A stretch of DNA of 64,000 nucleotides from a virus (lineage: Duplodnaviria; Caudoviricetes), in IMG/VR virus record IMGVR_UViG_2852743531_000003, positions 1 to 64,000 of that record. One strand, written 5' to 3'. The notes beneath the pieces are model-generated. The model worked only from the letters and a program-made list of their open reading frames with translations. It did no database searches and was not told where the DNA came from. The translations under genes were made by a program, and so were the position numbers. Below, one piece after another: positions 23,437-35,419 of this stretch (position 1 is its first letter; each line of letters begins with the position of its first letter).

Positions 23437-24690
23437 TCAGCCACCTGAAAGATTGACATCACAGCCGATCTGAAGAAAGTATGCGGGACTCAGGCCCGTC
23501 GCGTGGATGGGATTGCGGCTATCGGAAAGACCCGTCTCAACCTTCGCGTCGACGGTCCTGTATATGGGGTTGTTCCTGAAGTTGTCCTCCACCCTTAGCG
23601 ACCACTGCCTGTCTTCCGGGACAGGCCAGTATTCCGCAATTTTTCCGCAACCCGTCACGAGTGGCCAGACAGGTTGCACATAGCTAATATAGGCATGGGG
23701 CCAGCGTGGCGCCTCGACGCCCAGAAACTCGGTCCAGAGTTCGGTGTTGTCGATGAGCACGATGAAGGACTGACTGAGCGTGAGATAGGCCCCGATAAAG
23801 GCATCGGAGATCATTTCCGTGACCGTGAACGCGTGCGGGTTATCCGGCCACGATGTTAGCGGCATTGCAGAAAGGTCGATGAAACGCTTCGATTCGTACC
23901 AGCGGTCGAAGAGCGGCAGGTTGTTGAAGTCGATCATGATCGTGTCGGCGCCCACCAGCGTCACGGTCTTCGGATCGAGCACGTGGAGATATCCCCCGAT
24001 CACCGCCATCACGGTGTAGCCCGTCAGATCTCTCCCGAGATTCAGGTACGTGTGATTGCCCAGGTTCTGCTCGTCGATCTGCTTGAAGAGCATCTCACGC
24101 GTGATCGGGACATAGGTGAGCGTCCCCAGGTCCTGAAAATCCAGAATTCCGACTTTATTTTTTTTGGCATGAGTAACGGATTTCATTCCGTCCGTCACCC
24201 ATATACCGTTCTGGCCGTCGCTGTCGATCAGGTGGAAGAATCCGTTTACAGTCACCATGCAGCTCTGGAAAAACGAGCTGTAGGACGTTCGGGCGCGCGT
24301 GAGAAACAGATCCGTCTTCTCCGCTGTCGGTAGCGGACTGGACAACGACGCAACGGGGCTGATCGGCTCGATTGCATAGCCCGCCTGAAATGCGTCCTGA
24401 TACCGCGCATACCGGGTGTCGAGCGTGGGGATGGTATCGGATGTCGGTAGCGCCATGTCACCAAGGGCAGCCAGATACTGGTTGAAGGTCTGCTGCTGGT
24501 CGGTGATGGTGCCAGCAATATCGTTGAGATTCAGGCTGACAGGGTTGCCGAGAAAGGGATTGGTCAGCACCGCGCAGACCGTCGAGAAGGTCTGGACGAC
24601 CGTTGAAAAGGTCATGTCCCCGAGATCGATGGCGCACCAGTCCTGTCCACCGCCCAGTGATTTACCGATCGCAGATACCAGGGCATACAT
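23437..24690 (-). CDS. Virion structural protein, phiKZ gp130-like
   Basis: 417 aa. CMVTVNGFFH, VIGGYLH and AYLTLSQSFIVLID motifs. Divergent from the fibre cluster, as in phiKZ-like phages. Confidence 0.65.
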   Translation of the reverse strand: MYALVSAIGKSLGGGQDWCAIDLGDMTFSTVVQTFSTVCAVLTNPFLGNPVSLNLNDIAGTITDQQQTFNQYLAALGDMALPTSDTIPTLDTRYARYQDAFQAGYAIEPISPVASLSSPLPTAEKTDLFLTRARTSYSSFFQSCMVTVNGFFHLIDSDGQNGIWVTDGMKSVTHAKKNKVGILDFQDLGTLTYVPITREMLFKQIDEQNLGNHTYLNLGRDLTGYTVMAVIGGYLHVLDPKTVTLVGADTIMIDFNNLPLFDRWYESKRFIDLSAMPLTSWPDNPHAFTVTEMISDAFIGAYLTLSQSFIVLIDNTELWTEFLGVEAPRWPHAYISYVQPVWPLVTGCGKIAEYWPVPEDRQWSLRVEDNFRNNPIYRTVDAKVETGLSDSRNPIHATGLSPAYFLQIGCDVNLSGG

Positions 24691-24777: not shown

Positions 24778-27027
24778 ATGTCTACCATGCCCTCGTACCC
24801 GTTCGATCCAACAGGTTCGCTCGCCTCGAACCTCATCACCGGAGAGCAGCAGGTACTGGTTGCCCAGAATTTTCGCGACCAGCACCTGATCATCCCGGCG
24901 GCCGCCCCCTATTTTGCCGACACACTCCAGATCCAGTTCAGGGATACGAGCGGACAGATCACGACGCTCAAGGAGGGGACGGACTACTTCTGCACGCACT
25001 GGTTCATTTCCGCGAGCCGTTCGTGCGCCATGCGGGTGCACGGCTCCATCAGCTTCATCAACACCGCCCTGTCCGGGGTGGTGCAGTTGCGGTACCAGAC
25101 AATCGGCGGAATCTGGGTGCTCGACGCTGCCACGATTGCCGGGATACTTGCAAGCGCGATGAACAACGCGCGCGTGACCTCGTGGGAAGAGATCAGCGGC
25201 ACACCCTACGCCTTCCCGCCCGAGGCCCATACGTGGGACGTCTATGACATGGTCGGGATGGACGCCGTCGTTCAGGCGCTGGCCGACATCCAGAATACAC
25301 TGCAGGAGACAGGCGGTGCTGGTCTGGCCGCTCACAAAGCCGATCACGACAATCCGCACGTGGTCACGGCTGCGCAGGTCGGGCTCGGGAACGTCCAGAA
25401 CTATGGCGTTGCGGCCAACAGTGATGCGGCCGCCGGCACGTCAACCACGCTTTACATGACCCCGGCGACGACCGCTGCGGCGATCCAGACACAGGTTCTG
25501 GGCCCCTTCCTGATTCACGCAAGCAACTTCAACAACCCGCACCAGGTGAGCGCTGCCCAGGTGGGCTTAGGCAACGTCAGGAACTATGGCGTCGCAGCGC
25601 CAGCCGATGGGGTAAGTGGCACCTCGAACACGCTCTACATGACGCCGTCCACCACGGCCGCGGCGATCAACGGGACGGTTGGCATCACGATCAACCAGCA
25701 CCTGCTTGACTTTGGCAATCCGCACCAGGTGAGCGCCGCCCAGGTGGGCCTAAGTAATGTACGCAACCTGTTAACGGCGAGTGCAGCAGATGCAGTGGCC
25801 GGCACCAGCAACGATCTCTACATGACACCTGCGGCGACCGCGGCCGCCATTGCCCAGACGGGTGCCATGGGGCAACTGAACAGCCACATCACCGACTACA
25901 GCAATCCTCACCAGGTCACCGCGGCACAGGTTGGCGCGGTCACCGTGGGTGACGTCAACAATCTCCTGCAGGGCTACCTCCCCCTCACCGCTACGGCGGC
26001 CGACAGCACACTGGCGTACGGCCTGACGCTCAGTGAACTCGCGGCTTCCATTCTGGAAGGCACGGCCTCGAACGCGACGATGGTCGGGGGCATGACACCG
26101 CAGGACCTGATCAACTACATCACGAGCGGCATGTCGGACGATGCATCCACGTTCGGCGGCATGTCGCCAGCCGACTGGCAGGACTATATCGCGCACGCGA
26201 CCGTCGCAAACGCCAATCTGGCGTATGGCCTCACCCAGGACGCCCTGACGGCGGCGATCCTGTCGGGAACCGCTGCCAATGCCAACCAGCTCGGTGGCAT
26301 GTCGGTCTCGGAGCTCAGTGCGAGCATTCTCTCGGGCACCGCGGCGAACAGTGAACTCGCATACGGGTTGACGCAGGCCCAGCTCGCCAGCGCGATTCTT
26401 CAGGGCACAGCCGCTAATTCCGCAGAACTGAACGGCATGACGTCCAACGTGCTGATCCAGACAGCGGTGAACGCTGTCAGCGCGGTGGTCGCAGCTCAGG
26501 AGACCATTGCGGCCAACACCGACAACGTTGCCAATGTCTGGACGCCACTGGGGCAGGTCGCGATGCCGGGTCCGGCGCAAACGCAGACCGTGTTTCCCGA
26601 TGTGCAGTGGATTGTCACGGGAGGCGATGCGACCACGGACACCGGCAGTGGAGTCTGGCTTGTACGCATTTCGGTCAGGGCGAGCGGACAACCCGGCAAT
26701 GCGCTGCTGAGCGTGGTGAGCCTGAACGGCGTGAACATGGACACGGTGTCGTTCGGCTTCACCGTCGACAGCACCACGACACCGGGAGCACCCGTGCTCA
26801 CCACGTGGATGAAAACGCCGGGCGAGACCAACCAGATGTCCGTGACTTCGCTGTCCGAAAACACCACCCAGCTTGCCGGCAACGTTGTTCAGGTTAGCGC
26901 CGAGCCCTCCGGCATTACGTACTGGGCGGCAGACGCGTTTGCGACCGTGTCGCAGATGGCCGACCTCGTAAGCCAGTTGTACTTCGCGTTTGAAACCTTC
27001 TCCAGCTCGCTCAGCTCCGCTGCGTAA
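24778..27027 (+). CDS. Tail fibre / baseplate fibre protein 1 (phiKZ gp131 family)
   Basis: N-terminal YPFDPTG..NLITGE anchor. Four HxxxxxNPH repeats at 61-62 aa spacing, a second repeat type (GTAANS..AYGLT), and a beta-rich C-terminal domain. Confidence 0.8.
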   Translation: MSTMPSYPFDPTGSLASNLITGEQQVLVAQNFRDQHLIIPAAAPYFADTLQIQFRDTSGQITTLKEGTDYFCTHWFISASRSCAMRVHGSISFINTALSGVVQLRYQTIGGIWVLDAATIAGILASAMNNARVTSWEEISGTPYAFPPEAHTWDVYDMVGMDAVVQALADIQNTLQETGGAGLAAHKADHDNPHVVTAAQVGLGNVQNYGVAANSDAAAGTSTTLYMTPATTAAAIQTQVLGPFLIHASNFNNPHQVSAAQVGLGNVRNYGVAAPADGVSGTSNTLYMTPSTTAAAINGTVGITINQHLLDFGNPHQVSAAQVGLSNVRNLLTASAADAVAGTSNDLYMTPAATAAAIAQTGAMGQLNSHITDYSNPHQVTAAQVGAVTVGDVNNLLQGYLPLTATAADSTLAYGLTLSELAASILEGTASNATMVGGMTPQDLINYITSGMSDDASTFGGMSPADWQDYIAHATVANANLAYGLTQDALTAAILSGTAANANQLGGMSVSELSASILSGTAANSELAYGLTQAQLASAILQGTAANSAELNGMTSNVLIQTAVNAVSAVVAAQETIAANTDNVANVWTPLGQVAMPGPAQTQTVFPDVQWIVTGGDATTDTGSGVWLVRISVRASGQPGNALLSVVSLNGVNMDTVSFGFTVDSTTTPGAPVLTTWMKTPGETNQMSVTSLSENTTQLAGNVVQVSAEPSGITYWAADAFATVSQMADLVSQLYFAFETFSSSLSSAA

Positions 27028-27108: not shown

Positions 27109-28563
27109 ATGTCGACTCCACCCGTTTCGCTGCCTGTATCACTACCATTCGACCCCGGCGGCAGCGCGCGCAGCAACCTGGTCGAGGACGAAATCCAGGT
27201 CATCGGACTACGCAGCATTCGAGCCTTTCCGTTGAATTATGGGCTTTTCTTCACCACCTCCCTGGTTGTAACCGACAATGCGACCGGCCTGCCCCTGACG
27301 CCAGGGGCGCAGTACTACGCGACACAGATGGATGTCGGCGCATCCATGCGATGCGGCAGCGAGATCGACGAGGTTGTGGTCATCACCGACCTCACGGTGA
27401 GCCAGACAGTTCGCGTGACCTATCAGGCGCTTGGCGGCGTCAACAATGTGGCACTCGGTGCCCTGCAAATCGCGATCGATAACCTGCACATCAATGACGG
27501 CCCTGTGAGCTGGGCTGACGTGACAGGCAAACCATGCGCCTACCCGCCCACGCCACACCATCCGCATATTGCTGACGATATCTACGGTGCGGAGTACATC
27601 GTTGTTGCGCTCGAGCGCCTGAGTGCATCGATCCTCCAGGGACAGGGTGGCGCACAGGACGAACTGATGGCCTATGCGCAAAGCTGCGTGAATGAGGTCC
27701 TCGATTCGATCGCGGCCGCAGGCGCCACGCTTGACGCCCACGAGACGGATTCTGGCAACCCGCATCAGGACACTGCCCACCTGATCGGTGGCTATACCAC
27801 GGAAGAAACTACTGCGGCGATCGCCGTCGAGACGGTGAACCAGGAGCAGGCCGATGCCACTATCCAGGCCGCTCTCAATGCCCATATCGCTGATTACGAC
27901 AATCCGCACGAAGTCACCGCCAACCAGATTGGCGGCTGGTCGACTGCGCAATCCGATGCAGCCATGGCTGCGATGCAGGCATCGCTCATGCAGGCGATCA
28001 CGACGACCGAAGCCGTGCAGAACGCCCACTTTGTGAACCATGCCAACCCCCATCAGGACACGGCGGTGAATATCGGCACGCTCACGAGCGGGCAGATCAG
28101 CAGTGCTGCAACGGCTGGCGCCGCCACGCCTGGCTCGCAGGCCTCGGGGCTCGGCACCTCGGTCAACAACCACGTGACGAACACGGGCAATCCGCATCAG
28201 GACACCGCGGCCAACGTCGGCACGTGGACGTATGCGACAATCCAGAACAGCATCGTCAATCCCCTCACCTCGCACATCAACAATCTGGCCAATCCCCATC
28301 AGGTGACAGTCGCCCAGCTCGGGACCTACTCGTCGGCCACTATCAACAACAACATTGCTGCCGCACTCAACCAGATCGTAAGCGATGTGAATTCGCTGAA
28401 CGGCTATATCTCGGCGCACACGGGCAACATGAACAACCCGCATCAGGACACCCTGGCGAATACGGGTGCGGGAGGCTTCACGGCCGGGGCGCTGCAAAAC
28501 GCGATCAACCAGCTGCAGGGTCCGGGAGGCAGCGCCGGCAATGCCATTGCCGCGCTTCCCTGA
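27109..28563 (+). CDS. Fibre protein 2 (gp131/134/135 family)
   Basis: LPFDPGG..NLVEDE anchor, YQALGG, six NPH repeats, no C-terminal globular domain. Confidence 0.8.
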   Translation: MSTPPVSLPVSLPFDPGGSARSNLVEDEIQVIGLRSIRAFPLNYGLFFTTSLVVTDNATGLPLTPGAQYYATQMDVGASMRCGSEIDEVVVITDLTVSQTVRVTYQALGGVNNVALGALQIAIDNLHINDGPVSWADVTGKPCAYPPTPHHPHIADDIYGAEYIVVALERLSASILQGQGGAQDELMAYAQSCVNEVLDSIAAAGATLDAHETDSGNPHQDTAHLIGGYTTEETTAAIAVETVNQEQADATIQAALNAHIADYDNPHEVTANQIGGWSTAQSDAAMAAMQASLMQAITTTEAVQNAHFVNHANPHQDTAVNIGTLTSGQISSAATAGAATPGSQASGLGTSVNNHVTNTGNPHQDTAANVGTWTYATIQNSIVNPLTSHINNLANPHQVTVAQLGTYSSATINNNIAAALNQIVSDVNSLNGYISAHTGNMNNPHQDTLANTGAGGFTAGALQNAINQLQGPGGSAGNAIAALP

Positions 28564-31380
28564 GCACCTCGCTGAGCCTCTCCTGGGTGGAAAGGTTGCG
28601 TCTACAAGGGGCCGCGGATGATACCCAATCTCTATCGCTACCCGCTCGACCTCTCGGGCGAACGCCGGAAAAACTTCGTGACTGGCGAGCCGCATGCGAT
28701 CGGAACCATGCCTGTACGCGTCATCGCGCCCCGTCAGGGGCTTTTCTTTGGCGCATCCGTCCAGATCGTGGACGCGTTCACCCAGCACACGCTGTTGCCG
28801 CTCCAGTATCGTTTCCAGTTCCTGCACGAACACGCGACGAGACTGACGGGCAAGGAGGTCGACGCGGTGATCGTCATCACCGATCCGGGCGTCAGCCCCA
28901 ATGTCCTGATTACCTACCAGGCGCTGGGCGGCGAGTACGGCCAGCCGCTGGCCGCGATCACGGATGAAATCACCGCGTTAGCCAACGACACGCGCGGTGT
29001 CGCATTCCAGGACATCACGAACAGGCCGGATACCTTTCCCCCCGTGCCACATCTGCACGCAATCGGGGACACCTACGACTGGGACTATATCGTCACGGCC
29101 ATCGAGATGCTGATGGCGATCGTGAGCCTGTCCGAAACGGCAGCCTACGACACCGTGCTGGGTTTCATCGATCAGCAGGTCAATCTTCGCGACGGCGACA
29201 TTGCCAATCTTGCGCAGCAGCTCTCGGCGCACATCACAAACTACAGCAACCCGCACCAGACCACGCTCGCCCAGCTGAACATGTATTCCGCCGCGCAGGT
29301 CGCAACGCTGATTGCCAGCCAGACAGCCGCACGTGAGGCGGGTGACAGCGCTCTGCTTGCCAGCATTGCGGCCCATTCGGGGGATCTGGGCAACCCACAT
29401 CGCGACACGGCGGCCGACATTGGCGGCTATACAAGCGAAGAGGCGAATGCCAACCTGAACACCATCGTGAATGCGCTTGACGCAACGCTCGCGCAGGATG
29501 CATCTGCGATGGCCGCGCACATCGCCGACACTGACAATCCTCATGAGGTGACACTCGCCCAGATTGATGGACTGACGACGGCACAGATCAACGCCGTGAT
29601 TTCGACGGCGATGCAGCCGGCAACCACGCAGCTCGCGGCCATCGAGAGCCAGCTCGATACCCACATCACCAACTACAGCAATCCGCACCAGACCACGCTC
29701 GCACAGATCAGCGGGTGGGACAACGGCAGTATCGGCACGGTCAACACGCAGGCGACCAGCCACATCAGCAACCGAAGCAATCCGCACCAGCTGAACGTTT
29801 CACAGGTCGGTACGCTGACGGGCGCACAGATCAACGCGAACATCACCAGCAACCTGGTGAACCCGGCGAACAACTCGTATCTGACGCCACAGGCAAACAA
29901 CATCAACGCCCACGTCGGCAATTTCAATAACCCCCATAACACCACGGTGGCGATGCTCGGCGGCTGGACCTACGCACAGTGGCAGGCCGCATTACAGGCC
30001 GCGATCAACAACCTTTCTTACCATTGACCTCGACGTTCAGGAGAACTGTGTATGTCCGAAGTCATGAGTTTGCCACTGGACGCAACAGGAAAGGCACCAT
30101 CAAACCACATCACCGACGAACATTACGTAATCGGATCAGCCGGTATCCGGGCTATCGCGACAGACTACGGTGGATTTTACGCTTCTAGCCTCATCATCCG
30201 GGACGTTGCAACCGGCGAGCCGCTTGGACCCGACCAGTATTTCCTGTCAGGGATCATGGATCTGGCCACCGCGAAGTACGGCGCAGCCAATGCTACGCAG
30301 ATCGTCTCGATCGTTGTTGTCACGGATCCTGCGGTTTCCAGCAACGTCGAACTCGACTATCAGGCGCTTGGCGTGCAGTACGCCACACCGCAAACCGCAA
30401 TCGCCAATGCGATCGAAACGTATGAACCTGATACACGATCACCGCAATGGCCATCGGTTATCGACGATGTAGCCGATCTGCCTGCCTCGCAGGCGCTGCA
30501 TGACGCGGGACAGGAAGGGCTGATCACCTTCGAATATGTGGTCCATGCCATTGATCGCCTGCAGCAGCTGGCGTTAATGGGTGATCCGATCGCACAGGAC
30601 GAGGTGAAGGCTTACGCGGACGGGGCCGACAATACACAGACGCAGGCCATCAGTTCACTGCTCGATCTGCTGGTGAAGCACGAAGCGGATCACGCCAACC
30701 CCCACCGGCTCACACCCGGCCAGATTCTGGCTTTGACACAGTCGCAGCAGGACGCTGCCATCAGGGTCGAGACGTCAGCGCGTATCGCGGCTGACACGGA
30801 AGTCGACGAGACGCTGAACGATCACATCACCGACTACGCAAACCCGCACCAGACCACCCTTGCGCAGGTCGACATGTACTCAGTCGCACAGGCGAACAAC
30901 CAGATCAGTATTGCGCAGAATGGGGTCAACGCCGTGCTCGCGTCCAACGTGAGCACAATGAACGCCCACATCAACAACACGAACAACCCCCACCAGACGA
31001 CTCCCGCCGAACTCGGCACGCTAAGCGCCAGCGACATTTCGGCGGCAATTGCCGCGGCCGCCAGCACGGTGACATCCGGGGTAAGCGCTGCGCTCTCGAC
31101 GCTTAACGCGCATATAGGCAATACCGCAAACCCTCACGAGCTGACCCCTGCACAACTCGGAACATGGACTGCTGCGCAGTTGCAGAGCCTCGCGAGTGCG
31201 GTGTCGGGACACGCCGCAAACTATTCGAATCCTCATGGCGACACGGTCGACATGATCGGCGGCATGGCGAGTGATGCGATCGACAGCGCCATCAATAGCG
31301 CACTCTCAGGACTGCTGTCCTATTACTCGAACAACAACGCGGCGATGGTCGGGCACGTCAATAATTTCGGCAATCCGCAT
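27739..31380 (+). repeat. 18 HxxxxxNPH coding repeats, mostly 144-nt period, across fibre genes 2-4
   Basis: NPH codons start at 27757/27901/28045/28189/28291/28435; 29248/29392/29536/29680/29779/29929; 30697/30841/30985/31129/31228/31372. Confidence 0.9.
28618..30027 (+). CDS. Fibre protein 3 (gp131/134/135 family)
   Basis: YPLDLSG..NFVTGE anchor, YQALGG, six NPH repeats, no C-terminal globular domain. Confidence 0.8.
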   Translation: MIPNLYRYPLDLSGERRKNFVTGEPHAIGTMPVRVIAPRQGLFFGASVQIVDAFTQHTLLPLQYRFQFLHEHATRLTGKEVDAVIVITDPGVSPNVLITYQALGGEYGQPLAAITDEITALANDTRGVAFQDITNRPDTFPPVPHLHAIGDTYDWDYIVTAIEMLMAIVSLSETAAYDTVLGFIDQQVNLRDGDIANLAQQLSAHITNYSNPHQTTLAQLNMYSAAQVATLIASQTAAREAGDSALLASIAAHSGDLGNPHRDTAADIGGYTSEEANANLNTIVNALDATLAQDASAMAAHIADTDNPHEVTLAQIDGLTTAQINAVISTAMQPATTQLAAIESQLDTHITNYSNPHQTTLAQISGWDNGSIGTVNTQATSHISNRSNPHQLNVSQVGTLTGAQINANITSNLVNPANNSYLTPQANNINAHVGNFNNPHNTTVAMLGGWTYAQWQAALQAAINNLSYH

Positions 31381-31980
31381 CAGGTTAGCGCGCAGGCTAT
31401 CGGTTGCGTCGGACCCTGGAACAATCTCGCGGGCGATCTGAACAACGCACAGGCGCAGATCAATGCGAGCGGCCATCCTGTCACTGAGTCGCCAACGCAG
31501 TATTTCAGCATCAACTACTCGGGTGCGATGGGGGGCAATTTCGAGCGCAGCCTGGAGATTGCCTGGTCCATCAGTGCCGGCACAGCGTACTACCGCCCGT
31601 CCGGCGGGGACAACACCTTTTGCGGCATCTTCCCGTTCTTCAGCGTGACCGGCGGAGCTCAGGTTCAGGGCTTTTTCCGCTCGGGCAACGTCATCTCGAT
31701 CTATGTGCTCAATGGCAGCCTCGACGGCATGACCTTCACGTCGTCGATTGGCGACAATGTTCTGCTGTCCAACGCGCGCTCGTACACGTTCCTCCAGACG
31801 GGCAATGGCCTCTTCACGTTGTACTGCGGGATCAGTGCGGTGGGGCAGACGGGCACGCCGCGCTCGTACGCCGTGAATTTCACGGGCTCACCCCTGGCAC
31901 CGCAGCCGCCAATGGGCTACGTCAACAACCAGCCGCCTGCGCCACCCCCGCCGCCGCAGGAAGCTGGTGGCGGGGCCTGA
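30052..31980 (+). CDS. Fibre protein 4 (gp131/134/135 family) with C-terminal beta-rich domain
   Basis: LPLDATG..NHITDE anchor, YQALG, six NPH repeats, then an aromatic/beta-rich domain of about 150 aa and a poly-Pro tail. Confidence 0.8.
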   Translation: MSEVMSLPLDATGKAPSNHITDEHYVIGSAGIRAIATDYGGFYASSLIIRDVATGEPLGPDQYFLSGIMDLATAKYGAANATQIVSIVVVTDPAVSSNVELDYQALGVQYATPQTAIANAIETYEPDTRSPQWPSVIDDVADLPASQALHDAGQEGLITFEYVVHAIDRLQQLALMGDPIAQDEVKAYADGADNTQTQAISSLLDLLVKHEADHANPHRLTPGQILALTQSQQDAAIRVETSARIAADTEVDETLNDHITDYANPHQTTLAQVDMYSVAQANNQISIAQNGVNAVLASNVSTMNAHINNTNNPHQTTPAELGTLSASDISAAIAAAASTVTSGVSAALSTLNAHIGNTANPHELTPAQLGTWTAAQLQSLASAVSGHAANYSNPHGDTVDMIGGMASDAIDSAINSALSGLLSYYSNNNAAMVGHVNNFGNPHQVSAQAIGCVGPWNNLAGDLNNAQAQINASGHPVTESPTQYFSINYSGAMGGNFERSLEIAWSISAGTAYYRPSGGDNTFCGIFPFFSVTGGAQVQGFFRSGNVISIYVLNGSLDGMTFTSSIGDNVLLSNARSYTFLQTGNGLFTLYCGISAVGQTGTPRSYAVNFTGSPLAPQPPMGYVNNQPPAPPPPPQEAGGGA

Positions 31981-32003
31981 CATGACGGCGTCCCAGCATC
32001 ACT

Positions 32004-32241
32004 ATCGCAAGCCCCGGGAGCCAGACACGATGAAACCAGCATTGCCAGGTGAGCGCCGGAGCGCAAGCCAGATGCTTCGGGATCTGATCTACCACTCGCC
32101 GCGAGGATGTGGACAAGCGCACATCCGTGAACGGAAAAGGTATCGGCAATGCAATCGCAAGTCTCATGAGTCGACTTCAATGAAACCGCCATACTCGATC
32201 TATCACAGAACATCGCCCCAGATTCTTCGCGATCTGGTCTA
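32004..32241 (+). repeat. Degenerate 150-bp tandem duplication of a gene 5' end
   Basis: ATCGCAAG...ATGAAACC...CCAGATNCTTCGNGATCTGNTCTA recurs at an offset of exactly 150 nt (32004 and 32154). Confidence 0.75.
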
Positions 32242-32707
32242 TTTTACCTCCGGTTTTCTTCTGCCAGAACAGGGCGTGATCTATGGGAAGCCTGTAGCTA
32301 AAAAGCCCGTTCACGGAGATACGATCAAACGGGATACCGTAATCGAAATAGGGATAGAAAGAGGAGGCGCCTGCAGCCAGCGCATTCGGGGCAGAAGGTC
32401 GTTCTGGTACAGGCGGATCGATCTCGGCTTGCTTGATCCTCCAGAAGCAGGTCACGAGCCGATCCCCATAACGGCTTACCCATTTGATACGTATAACATC
32501 CTGCCTGCCATCAACGAATACTACGGGCTGAAACTCGGCCAAAACGATGTCGAAAACCGCGTATGCGGGCCAACGGACGTCGCTTACCTAGTAGCCAGCA
32601 GCGGATCGCTGGCGTTTTCGGGGTGCAAGGAACTCCAGTTGACCCTGCCGGATATCGCGAGTCTGGTCGATACAGCAAGTATCGGGGAGTTTGAAGCTGC
32701 TGCCTGA
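32180..32707 (+). CDS. Hypothetical protein, likely virion/tail accessory
   Basis: YRRIDL, LPAINEYYGLKL and GSLAFSG motifs. The start could instead be the in-frame ATG at 32030. Confidence 0.6.
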   Translation: MKPPYSIYHRTSPQILRDLVYFTSGFLLPEQGVIYGKPVAKKPVHGDTIKRDTVIEIGIERGGACSQRIRGRRSFWYRRIDLGLLDPPEAGHEPIPITAYPFDTYNILPAINEYYGLKLGQNDVENRVCGPTDVAYLVASSGSLAFSGCKELQLTLPDIASLVDTASIGEFEAAA

Positions 32708-32723
32708 AGAAGGCGTCTGCCGG

Positions 32724-34043
32724 TCAGCTTCCCGAACCGGCCTCCGTATTCCATGCGAGATAGCTGGCCGGCACGGCATTGATGAACGCGCTATTGCCGG
32801 GATTGAACGTGACCTGATCCGCGACCTGCCAGGTTGACGCGGCCGGAAACACCTGGGCGGCCTGAGCGTTGTGCCGGCAAATGCTCTGGATGGAGATCCC
32901 GCCGACGTTGCCAACGGGATTCTGGCTGTTCGGCGCATCGCCGTTCCACTGCTGGGTGATCGGGTTGTAGAACCAGATGAGCGCGTCGGTGAGGTTGACC
33001 GCCATGCCCACCGTGATGCCCTGCGATGGCGGCTGCGCGCCGGTCGAATCCACGACGGCGCCCAGGTAGTAGACGCCGCTCGTGGCCTTGGCCACGTTGG
33101 TGAACATCATGATGCTGTTCGCGTCTGCGCCCAGCTCGCCTACCGGTGCCCCGAACTGGTTAGTGAGACCAAACCCTACAGCCCCCGTCAGACGGTCATA
33201 GGTCGCCTCGGCGTAGAAGTAGCCCGAAACCTGCCCGTAAGTCGTGCGCGCAGTGAGCCATTCGTTCGCGCTCGCCGCCACCGTCATGTTGCTGTTTGCG
33301 AGTTCCATGCCGTCTGGCAGCAATTCGGGATCAAACGTCGCCGTCACTGTCGGCAGGATTTTCGTACCGCCTCCCGTGCCAGGAATATCGCCACCGGGAA
33401 TCGTTCCGTCATCGACCAGACTCTGGATGAACTGCGAGAGCATCGCGATCTGCTGCTGCAGTGTCGCGATCTGGGCGCGCGCTGCGGCCAACTGGGCTGT
33501 AGGCGTGCCCTTGCTACCCATCAGCGCCTCACGGCTCGCGGTGATCGAGGCATCCTCCTGCGGGCTGATCAGGGTCTTCGACGTCACGGCAAGCGATGTC
33601 ACCGCGCCTGGGTGCACACCGATCGCGTCCTGCACTGCGGCGCTCACCTGCGACTTCACGTAGGTCAGGTCGAGCGAATCCGGCAACGCACCGAGATTGA
33701 CGCCAAGCACGATACCCCGATACGGGATGTTGTTCGCGTTAGGCATCTGGCTGATGTACGTGCTCGGTACATACACCCAGTTGCCGCCCGTGGCCTGCAG
33801 TGAAACGATGGCGGCGCCAGCGGCGACATCATTCTGGTAGTCGGTCTGGGTCAGGTCCTGCGGCTGATAGTAGAGCGTAAAGGGATCGCCGCCGGCCGCG
33901 ATAATATCGACAAGCAGGCGTACCGCCACGCAACTGTACGCCAATGCGGGCGAGATCAGCTGGTCGAATGGTGCAACCAGCGACCACAGACCCGATGCAC
34001 CGACGTTCGGATTCAGGGGTGTCGTCATGGCAGGCTGGTTCAC
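32724..34043 (-). CDS. Virion-associated protein with C-terminal SPRY/B30.2-like domain
   Basis: phiKZ-like N-terminal half (GLWSLVAPF, VYVPSTYI, LGALP), a short coiled coil, then a SPRY pattern (SGYFYAE, VGFGL, TVGMAVNL..LIWFY..NG, QVTFNPG). Confidence 0.65.
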   Translation of the reverse strand: MNQPAMTTPLNPNVGASGLWSLVAPFDQLISPALAYSCVAVRLLVDIIAAGGDPFTLYYQPQDLTQTDYQNDVAAGAAIVSLQATGGNWVYVPSTYISQMPNANNIPYRGIVLGVNLGALPDSLDLTYVKSQVSAAVQDAIGVHPGAVTSLAVTSKTLISPQEDASITASREALMGSKGTPTAQLAAARAQIATLQQQIAMLSQFIQSLVDDGTIPGGDIPGTGGGTKILPTVTATFDPELLPDGMELANSNMTVAASANEWLTARTTYGQVSGYFYAEATYDRLTGAVGFGLTNQFGAPVGELGADANSIMMFTNVAKATSGVYYLGAVVDSTGAQPPSQGITVGMAVNLTDALIWFYNPITQQWNGDAPNSQNPVGNVGGISIQSICRHNAQAAQVFPAASTWQVADQVTFNPGNSAFINAVPASYLAWNTEAGSGS

Positions 34044-35419
34044 GAAGTGAGCGATGCAGTGTCGGCGGGCTGTACGGGAGCCGGCACACCGGGAAGGGGG
34101 AAGTTTGACAGCGTGACCATCAGATAGCTGATGCCCCCATAACTGGAGACGAGATACAGAATATTGTTGCGCACGAGCTTGGTCATGCCTGCCGGGACGC
34201 TACCGAACTGCGTCAGCGTTTCCGCGGTTTTGAGCATGTCAACGAGGAGCAGCAGGAAGTTTTGCGTGTCGACCGCCATGCGGTTGAAATCCACGCTTTG
34301 CGTGGGCACCGAAAGGATATCCGGAAACACGTTCACGATCTGGAATGCGCCGTTCCTGTTATTCGGTGAACCGCAGCTCACGAGCGCTACGCATTTATAC
34401 GGCACGGTCTGCACACACGCGTTCGAATCAATATGATTCGAACCATACGCCGCGACCTGATTGATCATGGCATTGGCACGGCTGAGGTTGGCGACTGGCG
34501 AGTAAATCCCGCGTTGCTGGCTACGATCCGGAATCGCGAACTGGTCCCACATCGGCACGAGAGTGAATTCCGTTCGTCTGAAAATGTCCGGCAGGATCGT
34601 TTCCCAGTCGGCCTGGTCATGCGCGCTGTTGGCCAGAATGAAATTGATGATGGCATTGGCAATCGAGTCGATATTGTTGCCGGCCAGTCCGTAAATCAGG
34701 ATCGTCCAGTTTGTCGGTATCGTATTGGCCGGGTTATTCGGATCGATGTAATTGAAGCTCAGTGCCTCAATCATTGTTTCCGGATTATTGCCTCTGGCCG
34801 CGTTGACCAGCGCAATGGTATCGGTATAGGACTGCGCCGCGACAAGTGCGGCGACGTTGGAGGAGGTCGTGAAAAAGTCATCGAGATTCTGGATCGGCGG
34901 CACGACGAGGATCGTGTAGTCATCGTACTGTGCAGCGAACGCCGCATCGGTGAACCAGATCCGGATGAGGCAGGTGCTACCCGTCGTGATCGAGCCATAA
35001 ACCGGATCCGTGAGGTTTTCCCATTGCAGCCATTCCGGCACCCAGTACGTGCCGTCGGTCACCATGGTGCCGCACGTGAAATTCTGTGCCTCGGTCTGGA
35101 ACTGGCCCAATAACCCGTCGAGCAGGGTTTGTGCCGCGATCTCGCCGGGGTTCGGGATGGCCTGCGTCTGCGCGTACACCCAAGCGGCGAACCGGAGTAC
35201 CTGTGTCGCGATTCCCGGCGGTGGTTGCACCGTGCCGGTGTCGTCCGCGCTGGTAAAGCTCACGAAGAAGAGGTCTGGACTCGACTCCTCAAAAAACATG
35301 GATTTCGTGATCGCGTAGGTACTCGAGAGTTCCGAAAGCGCGCCGATCACGGCAAGCGTGCCCGCAGGAGCGGCGCTCGCGAGCTTCGAATTATTGATGA
35401 AACCTTTGAGCAGATACAT
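34040..35419 (-). CDS. Virion structural protein (phiKZ gp157-like region)
   Basis: 459 aa. MYLLKGF, IGALS, IWFTDAAFAAQYD and LPDIFRRTEF motifs. Position upstream of RNase H. Confidence 0.6.
   Translation of the reverse strand: MYLLKGFINNSKLASAAPAGTLAVIGALSELSSTYAITKSMFFEESSPDLFFVSFTSADDTGTVQPPPGIATQVLRFAAWVYAQTQAIPNPGEIAAQTLLDGLLGQFQTEAQNFTCGTMVTDGTYWVPEWLQWENLTDPVYGSITTGSTCLIRIWFTDAAFAAQYDDYTILVVPPIQNLDDFFTTSSNVAALVAAQSYTDTIALVNAARGNNPETMIEALSFNYIDPNNPANTIPTNWTILIYGLAGNNIDSIANAIINFILANSAHDQADWETILPDIFRRTEFTLVPMWDQFAIPDRSQQRGIYSPVANLSRANAMINQVAAYGSNHIDSNACVQTVPYKCVALVSCGSPNNRNGAFQIVNVFPDILSVPTQSVDFNRMAVDTQNFLLLLVDMLKTAETLTQFGSVPAGMTKLVRNNILYLVSSYGGISYLMVTLSNFPLPGVPAPVQPADTASLTS

Follow-up and report, generated by a model that had tools for sequence, protein, structure and literature searches.

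Three adjacent fibre genes with matched repeat register in a phiKZ-like jumbo phage: a candidate mixed trimer with a single tip

Because phage fibres are taken as homotrimers, and host-range engineering assumes three identical tips, a locus with three similar fibre genes side by side raises the question of whether their products form three separate fibres or contribute one chain each to the same fibre. Such a locus is present in the window, that is, the whole stretch of 64,000 nucleotides analysed here (positions 1 to 64,000 of the IMG/VR virus record IMGVR_UViG_2852743531_000003). Three adjacent genes, designated gA, gB and gC, code for diverged proteins with the same repeat register, and a fourth paralogue, g0, lies upstream of them. 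We consider one mixed trimer of gA, gB and gC in a 1:1:1 ratio to be the best single explanation of this arrangement, and we give it about an even chance of being correct. The following features, given with the expect values (E) of their database matches, have been used throughout this study.

23437..24690, minus strand: gp130-like baseplate protein, at the same divergent position as phiKZ gp130 (phrog_3337, E 1.7e-105; BLASTP to phiKZ gp130, 30% over 428 amino acids (aa), E 4e-60).
24778..27027, plus strand: g0, type I fibre protein (gp131-like), 749 aa (phrog_2163, E 1.5e-104; BLASTP to gp131, 34% over 326 aa, E 6e-53; grouped with the type I proteins in the tree of N-terminal domains, called N-domains below).
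27109..28563, plus strand: gA, type II fibre protein (gp133-like), 484 aa, with six repeats and without a tip (phrog_2163, E 4.8e-66).
28618..30027, plus strand: gB, type II fibre protein, 469 aa, with six repeats and without a tip (phrog_2163, E 3.1e-80).
30052..31980, plus strand: gC, type II fibre protein, 642 aa, with six repeats, a helical connector, a predicted beta-sandwich tip and a Pro-rich tail (phrog_2163, E 1.4e-62).
31444..31977, plus strand: residues 465-642 of gC, comprising the connector, the predicted beta-sandwich tip of ~140 aa and the Pro-rich end (AlphaFold2 (AF2) model).

The motif H-x5-N-P-H is found exactly six times in each of gA, gB and gC, as the initial annotation of this DNA had reported, and the spacings it gave, 48/48/48/34/48, 48/48/48/33/50 and 48/48/48/33/48 aa for the three proteins in this order, were recovered unchanged. 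The first histidine (His) is at residues 211, 205 and 210 and the N of NPH at 217, 211 and 216, respectively; the positions 216, 210 and 215 that had been given for the first motif are right as counts of the residues preceding NPH, not as the place of the first His itself. Beyond the last motif, gA and gB have 39 and 29 residues, in agreement with the roughly 30-40 aa claimed for two of the proteins, and gC has 199. The same annotation had counted three fibre paralogues, and this number has to be raised to four: g0, with four motifs, was overlooked, and with it the hexameric context of the fibre. All 22 motif matches in a six-frame translation of the window fall in these four adjacent genes, four of them in g0, and 2000 residue shuffles per protein gave a mean of 0.003-0.004 motifs with a maximum of one. 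Within the window clade, which comprises the window and six relatives, the H, N, P and H of the 18 type II motifs are invariant at 72 of 72 positions in the seven genomes, the mean column identity being 62-70%. A chain-specific signature is present in every interval between motifs and is kept across the seven genomes, and intervals of the same index have common features, such as an Arg/Asp pair restricted to interval 1-2.

Some repeats are closer to a repeat of different index in another chain, namely gA1 to gB2 (17 of 33 identities), gA2 to gB3 (18 of 33) and gB1 to gC2 (19 of 33). Since the interval-specific features are collinear, a reading of this resemblance as array turnover is not relied on.

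An AF2 monomer model of gB, built from a 66-row alignment (mean predicted local distance difference test score, pLDDT, 74.9), suggests how the repeats are placed in the shaft. The predicted segments are listed by gB residue.

11-110: beta-rich N-domain, block-mean pLDDT 87-97.
111-155: two short helices (111-122 and 130-132), then a low-confidence linker.
156-206: long helix.
225-255: helix.
273-303: helix.
321-351: helix.
369-384: short helix (repeat 4).
402-433: helix.
452-466: final short helix.

In this model, successive helices between 225 and 433 have non-helical stretches of 17 residues between them, with NPH inside these stretches; the first His of each motif is at the C-terminal end of a helix, and NPH is in the loop after it. 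That only the third protein continues into a beta-rich domain had been proposed from the letters alone, and the confident AF2 model of gC residues 465-642 as a single chain, with 11 strands (pLDDT 87.7; predicted template modelling score 0.83), bears this out. A Foldseek search with this tip model gave no match at E<=0.001 in PDB or BFVD, and sequence searches gave 15 proteins with the tip at E<=0.001, the window's own included.

These genes make up the module for the baseplate fibres of a phiKZ-like jumbo phage (Chimalliviridae). All four fibre proteins have an anchor domain of ~120 aa at the N-terminus (N-domain hidden Markov model (HMM), E 1e-63 to 1e-70) as well as a long helix, BLASTP of the four to gp131/gp135 gave E 6e-53 to 2e-22, and gA, gB and gC all have gp135 as their best match in phiKZ. 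The 173 phage records matched by gC in tblastn are all of jumbo phages (Pseudomonas, Erwinia, Ralstonia, Burkholderia, Xanthomonas and others). The gene order, with the gp130-like gene on the minus strand followed by g0, gA, gB and gC, mirrors that of phiKZ gp130 (minus)/gp131/gp132/gp133/gp134/gp135, so that in both genomes the type I and then the type II genes stand downstream of a divergently transcribed gp130-like gene. An equivalent of gp132 is absent, only 81 bases lying between g0 and gA, and the whole 141-kb record has no paralogues other than the four. In g0, the anchor domain is followed by four H-x5-NPH repeats spaced 61/61/62 and by a 371-aa C-terminal part with another repeat family. 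This C-terminal part is unrelated in sequence to that of gp131, since the BLASTP alignment stops at gp131 residue 363, and the seven-bladed beta-propeller domain at the C-terminus of gp131 was not found in g0 by BLASTP or in PDB (E<=10); the tail of g0 is a different domain. No Pfam family was above its cut-off for the four fibre proteins, PDB sequence searches gave no match for gC at E<=1 or for g0 at E<=10, and megablast of the cluster against phage records gave none. A promoter and terminator scan did no better than shuffled sequences (0 promoters; 7 terminator-like sites against 5.4 expected).

For a survey of copy number, the N-domain HMM was run on the open reading frames (ORFs) of 74 loci of relatives, denoted by L and a number, as well as on those of phiKZ, FLC9 and the window, and 75 of the 77 sources had a match at E<1e-3. 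Two paralogues per locus were found at 51 loci, four at 16, one at five and three at two (L069 and L068). The commonest state is one type I gene, with the first His at ~181-195, and one type II gene, with the first His at ~204-210 in most lineages and later in a few (e.g. L042/L043 and L060-L062). Four-gene loci fall into two groups: the phiKZ clade (L003, L040, L048, L050, L051, L056, L065, L066 and L070, together with L069, which has three paralogues and is cut at a contig end) and the window clade (the window and L004-L009). In all seven window-clade genomes g0 has four repeats and gA/gB/gC have 6/6/6, with the spacings kept except for gA in L007 and L009; the three adjacent genes of matched shaft length always occur together, and the g0 N-domains are 63-91% identical to that of the window. 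All three type II genes are retained at 7 of 7 window-clade loci and at 9 of 10 phiKZ-clade loci, the tenth being the cut L069. In phiKZ, gp133/134/135 have 462/457/463 aa and two motifs each at like positions. Across its clade the second gp133-like motif was undetected at 6 of 10 loci while protein lengths stay similar, and in L066 the gp133-like chain alone has ~215 extra C-terminal residues. The RAY-like Erwinia phage record (L068:9956-15751) has three proteins with the N-domain (320, 416 and 1162 aa), of which one is type-I-like and lacks repeats and two are type-II-like with one repeat each, and is the only lineage seen with two type-II-like genes; a rule that the type II copy number is 1 or 3 and never 2 was dropped on its account. 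The number of tblastn places per record was also dropped as a paralogue count, since it is 2 in phiKZ, which has four paralogues.

In trees of the N-domains, the two triples belong to different starred clades: the phiKZ triple is joined there by single-copy genes from L031, L035 and L037, and the window triple by those from L010, L013, L015, L002, L033, L049 and L060. A tree constrained to unite both triples is worse by 42.6 log-likelihood units (approximately unbiased (AU) test, p=0.02, for a grouping chosen after the tree was seen). In a reduced tree, one branch sets the window triple apart from the rest, with weak support (49), and the stems of the gA, gB and gC paralogue clades are long (0.55-0.81). 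Judged from the N-domain sequences, the type II (gp133-like) gene went through two separate triplications, one in the phiKZ clade and one in the window clade. Both triplications keep matched arrays, 6/6/6 here and 2/2/2 in phiKZ, the second gp133-like motif being undetected at some loci.

Identity among the gA, gB and gC N-domains is 33-36%, in line with the divergence described initially for the sequence between motifs, and they are 37-45% identical to those of the nearest single-copy type II genes (L010 and L015). For comparison, the type II N-domains of L010, L015 and their two nearest single-copy kin (L013 and L027) are 54-68% identical among themselves, and the g0 N-domain is 49-58% identical to those of the type I genes of the same four loci. 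The anchor domains of all three paralogues therefore diverged faster after triplication. When paralogues diversify for host range alone, it is usually the tip that varies while the anchor is kept, and a faster divergence of anchors is what non-equivalent positions in one complex would give.

Repeat number ranges from 1 to 9 across the family, and the lengths of type I and type II arrays change together. A single gene of each type was present at 42 loci, which became 33 after removal of near-duplicates; L023, L028, L061 and L067 had been set aside beforehand, on account of a cut or fragmentary type II gene or of genes on opposite strands. The array spans of the two types have a Spearman coefficient of 0.93 over the 33 dereplicated loci, which are phylogenetically non-independent, so that the p-value is not literal, and the number of type I repeats exceeds that of type II repeats by one (nI-nII=1) at 21 of 33 loci. 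Close relatives shift both arrays together. Thus, L054 has 4/3 type I/type II repeats against 6/5 in L036 and L019, despite type I N-domain end branches of <=0.019, and the same holds for L031 (4/2) and L035 (5/3), L041 (5/4) and L045 (6/5), and L042 (5/4) and L043 (4/3). The window clade is an outlier to nI-nII=1, with four repeats of 61 aa against six of 48 aa. This co-variation speaks for fibres built from the products of different genes whose lengths are matched.

A cryo-electron microscopy atlas of phiKZ published in 2026 describes, in passages on these fibres, twelve peripheral fibres, each attached below gp130 through six gp131-like N-domains together with a bundle of six helices, and names gp131x3+gp133+gp134+gp135 as a 'candidate' composition of the fibre base (PMC13250141). 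The peripheral location on the baseplate of the virion is likewise known from the phiKZ passages (PMC13250141). In the phage of the window, g0 would most likely be a homotrimer, next to which gA, gB and gC, with a single chain of each, would most likely form another trimer of mixed composition. The type II shaft would be a segmented helical rod with six helices of ~31 residues (16 in repeat 4), each carrying a terminal His and followed by a non-helical knot of ~17 residues with NPH; with the same register in three chains, six invariant His would meet at every knot. While gA and gB would end in a short helix right past knot 6, gC alone would run on into a self-contained beta-sandwich tip, which would leave one monomeric receptor-binding tip per mixed trimer.

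The 1:1:1 heterotrimer had already been claimed in the initial annotation, and the claim stands in part. In its favour are the positional precedent of gp133/134/135 in phiKZ, the two matched expansions from one gene to three, the faster divergence of the anchors and the presence of a tip in gC only. It is further supported by a register that is constant in 7 of 7 clade genomes though repeat number is labile elsewhere, by a tip that is predicted to fold confidently as a single chain and also occurs without a shaft (P0015), and by the precedents of phiKZ and of the virophage DSLV2. As to co-variation of repeat number among related phages, which it had proposed to examine, all seven clade genomes are 6/6/6. 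What it left out is the fourth paralogue, and the equal length of the three proteins may come from pairing with g0. Several points count against the mixed trimer. The equal length of gA, gB and gC could be imposed on three homotrimers by their common partner g0, given the co-variation of type I and type II arrays. In L007 and L009, motif 5 of gA is followed by 8 inserted aa (spacing 56) that are unmatched in gB (49) and gC (48). Single-copy type II proteins with tails of just 64-90 aa are common, so that a tip-less homotrimer is normal in this family, copy number is not strictly 1 or 3, as the one type-I-like and two type-II-like genes of L068 demonstrate, and the AU test was applied to a grouping picked from the finished tree. 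The phiKZ assignment, too, is called a candidate by its authors in the passages concerned and comes from docking of AlphaFold3 models at 4.4-4.6 Å (PMC13250141).

A rival reading is that of three homotrimers, A3, B3 and C3, each paired with a g0 trimer to give three kinds of fibre whose equal length is set by g0 and the baseplate geometry. Such a set of fibres is a serious rival, though less probable than the mixed trimer. It draws on the co-variation of type I and type II arrays in genomes with one gene of each (rho 0.93, nI-nII=1 in 21 of 33), on the tip-less single-copy type II genes with their tails of 64-90 aa, on the constancy of g0 at four repeats in the seven clade genomes and on the lineage with two type-II-like genes (L068), but it leaves unexplained why both well-supported expansions stopped at three genes and kept them all (7 of 7; 9 of 10, with the tenth cut), and why anchor domains rather than tips diverged fastest. 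Moreover, three fibre species would not divide evenly, by our own reckoning, among the 12 near-identical fibre sites of two kinds described in passages on phiKZ (PMC13250141), and part of a transposon-sequencing preprint places all of phiKZ gp131-135 among the genes without insertions. If, on the other hand, the chains were interchangeable within one fold, trimers of variable composition (A2B, AC2 and so on) would be formed. The common fold and register would allow this, and L068 with its two type-II-like genes would need a 2:1 trimer if its fibre were mixed; however, the chain-specific signature in every interval, conserved across seven genomes, and the long stems of the paralogue clades (0.55-0.81) argue for fixed, distinct roles, and we regard interchangeable chains as unlikely. 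That the matched register is duplication history only, under no present constraint, is very unlikely. Descent of the three genes from one six-repeat ancestor, and the likeness of same-index intervals, as in the Arg/Asp pair found only in interval 1-2, are what history would leave; against it, the N-domains are down to 33-36% identity with repeat number unchanged in 21 of 21 genes, the motif residues are invariant, and elsewhere in the family repeat number differs between near-identical relatives.

With the mixed gA+gB+gC trimer as the preferred reading, a wider proposal can be put forward tentatively, as a possibility that we would not yet call probable. The baseplate fibres of Chimalliviridae may be six-chain cables in which gp131-like and gp133-like trimers are length-coupled repeat for repeat, and the gp133-like trimer may have evolved at least twice independently from a homotrimer to an obligate ABC heterotrimer. 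The window lineage would have gone furthest, with heads lost from two chains, one monomeric tip and six His6 knots that may bind metal ions. If mixed trimers occur across this nucleus-forming jumbo phage family, with a single tip here, receptor binding would be monovalent per fibre, the phage could be retargeted by the swap of one gene, gC, and nature would offer, in the independent triplications, a clear example of a homomer becoming a heteromer. Structural work also gains a concrete prediction from the way in which gp131-like and gp133-like arrays co-vary, for the fibre density that, according to passages on them, is unresolved in the phiKZ and Goslar maps.

The gC tip is also found apart from the fibre. 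A 416-aa protein from a metagenome (P0015) has the tip and a Hint-like domain behind an unrelated N-terminus of ~55 aa, without the fibre shaft, and the tip is therefore a mobile module. In four of the six clade relatives (L005-L007 and L009; also in the proteins P0004, P0012 and P0014), the gC orthologues have ~200 aa beyond the Pro-rich linker. This extra domain starts like a Hint/intein module, with Pfam Hom_end_hint matches of 22.8-28.7 bits (cut-off 32.1) over the first 35-40 profile positions only and with weaker matches to Vint and Hint. The gC proteins of the window and of L004 end inside the Pro-rich linker, and a Gly/Asp-rich low-complexity tail replaces the Hint-like domain in the orthologue of L008 (L008:15254-17263). 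In the window, a gap of ~740 bases (31981-32723) with only an unsupported ORF (31967-32707, 246 aa) lies between gC and the next gene, which is on the minus strand; the Hint-like extension occupies the corresponding space in relatives. No convincing Hint-like remnant was found downstream of gC, as the C-termini of P0004 and P0014 match to 31926 only and the P0015 alignment, which continues beyond the stop codon, is weak towards its end. If the extension of the relatives is a self-cleaving domain following a fibre tip, it would merit attention.

The second repeat family of g0 consists of short Ala/Gly/Thr-rich repeats of ~20-25 aa at residues ~420-590 (window 26000-26600), after the four NPH repeats. 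On the minus strand beyond gC are a DUF7194 gene at 32724-34043 (Pfam E 4e-55; phrog_3241) and a virion structural protein gene at 34040-35419 (phrog_3293, E 5e-123). The source is a virus record of 140,992 bases with an estimated completeness of 53%, and the GC content of the window is ~60%. The closest gC relatives are from assemblies named Paraburkholderia and Caballeronia, and the host is probably a member of one of these genera. An identical gC protein is also recorded from a contig of 282,688 bases. The source record (141 kb) is classed as 'provirus', yet identical or near-identical proteins are on contigs of 275-284 kb, some of them from Paraburkholderia and Caballeronia assemblies; this would fit a free jumbo-phage genome that was co-assembled with its host better than it would an integrated prophage.

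Among known systems, phiKZ is the closest. The two phages have in common the gene order beside the divergent gp130-like gene, one long type I gene with three type II genes of matched length, the N-terminal domain (phrog_2163, E 1e-62 to 1e-104) and the H-x5-NPH repeats, and a mixed assembly with one copy per type II chain is proposed for phiKZ in passages of the atlas (PMC13250141). Among the literature found, this atlas alone deals with gp133, gp134 and gp135 together; the fibres could not be resolved according to passages of the Goslar paper, the passages of both papers make no mention of the array co-variation, and a literature search for the NPH motif in fibres gave unrelated papers only. 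There are clear differences as well. The genes gA, gB and gC are positional counterparts of gp133/134/135 rather than one-to-one orthologues, the triplication being independent. The type II proteins of phiKZ have two repeats of 61-64 aa, against six of 48 aa in the window; gp133-135 each keep a C-terminal part of 176-187 aa, which in the window gC alone does; gp132 has no counterpart gene in the window; and the C-terminus of g0 matches neither that of gp131 nor any PDB chain.

Another three-gene case is the virophage DSLV2, for which passages of the original paper describe three consecutive paralogues that co-purify as a heterotrimeric fibre (PMC12724248). The likeness lies in three adjacent paralogues of like length for which a 1:1:1 fibre is proposed, backed in DSLV2 by co-purification and AlphaFold3 scores; unlike the window proteins, its fibre resembles the T4 gp37 tip and all three chains contribute to the head (passages of PMC12724248). 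The DSLV2 proteins have no sequence relation to those of the window, which have no PDB match. The fibres of T4 gp37 and gp12, which have His-metal sites with HxH motifs, resemble the present ones in repeated invariant His pairs along a trimeric fibre, and this was the basis of an earlier 'His knot' idea. The difference is that HxH stands in beta structure there, while H-x5-N-P-H is predicted at a helix end with a loop after it here; the window fibres have neither the T4-type HxH motif nor a PDB homologue. The NPH repeat region also gave weak local matches to CIS13 (Afp13/Pvc13-type, NF053767; E 4e-5 to 6e-3, 16-23 bits, NCBIfam), and membership of the fibre proteins in that family was rejected since its curated cut-off is 370 bits. 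The 1:1:1 idea is thus already in print, in the source passages concerned, for the homologous phiKZ genes (PMC13250141) and for DSLV2 (PMC12724248), and our proposal is an extension of it, not the first of its kind; its new elements are the single-tipped form with six repeats, the independent triplications and the co-variation of type I and type II arrays.

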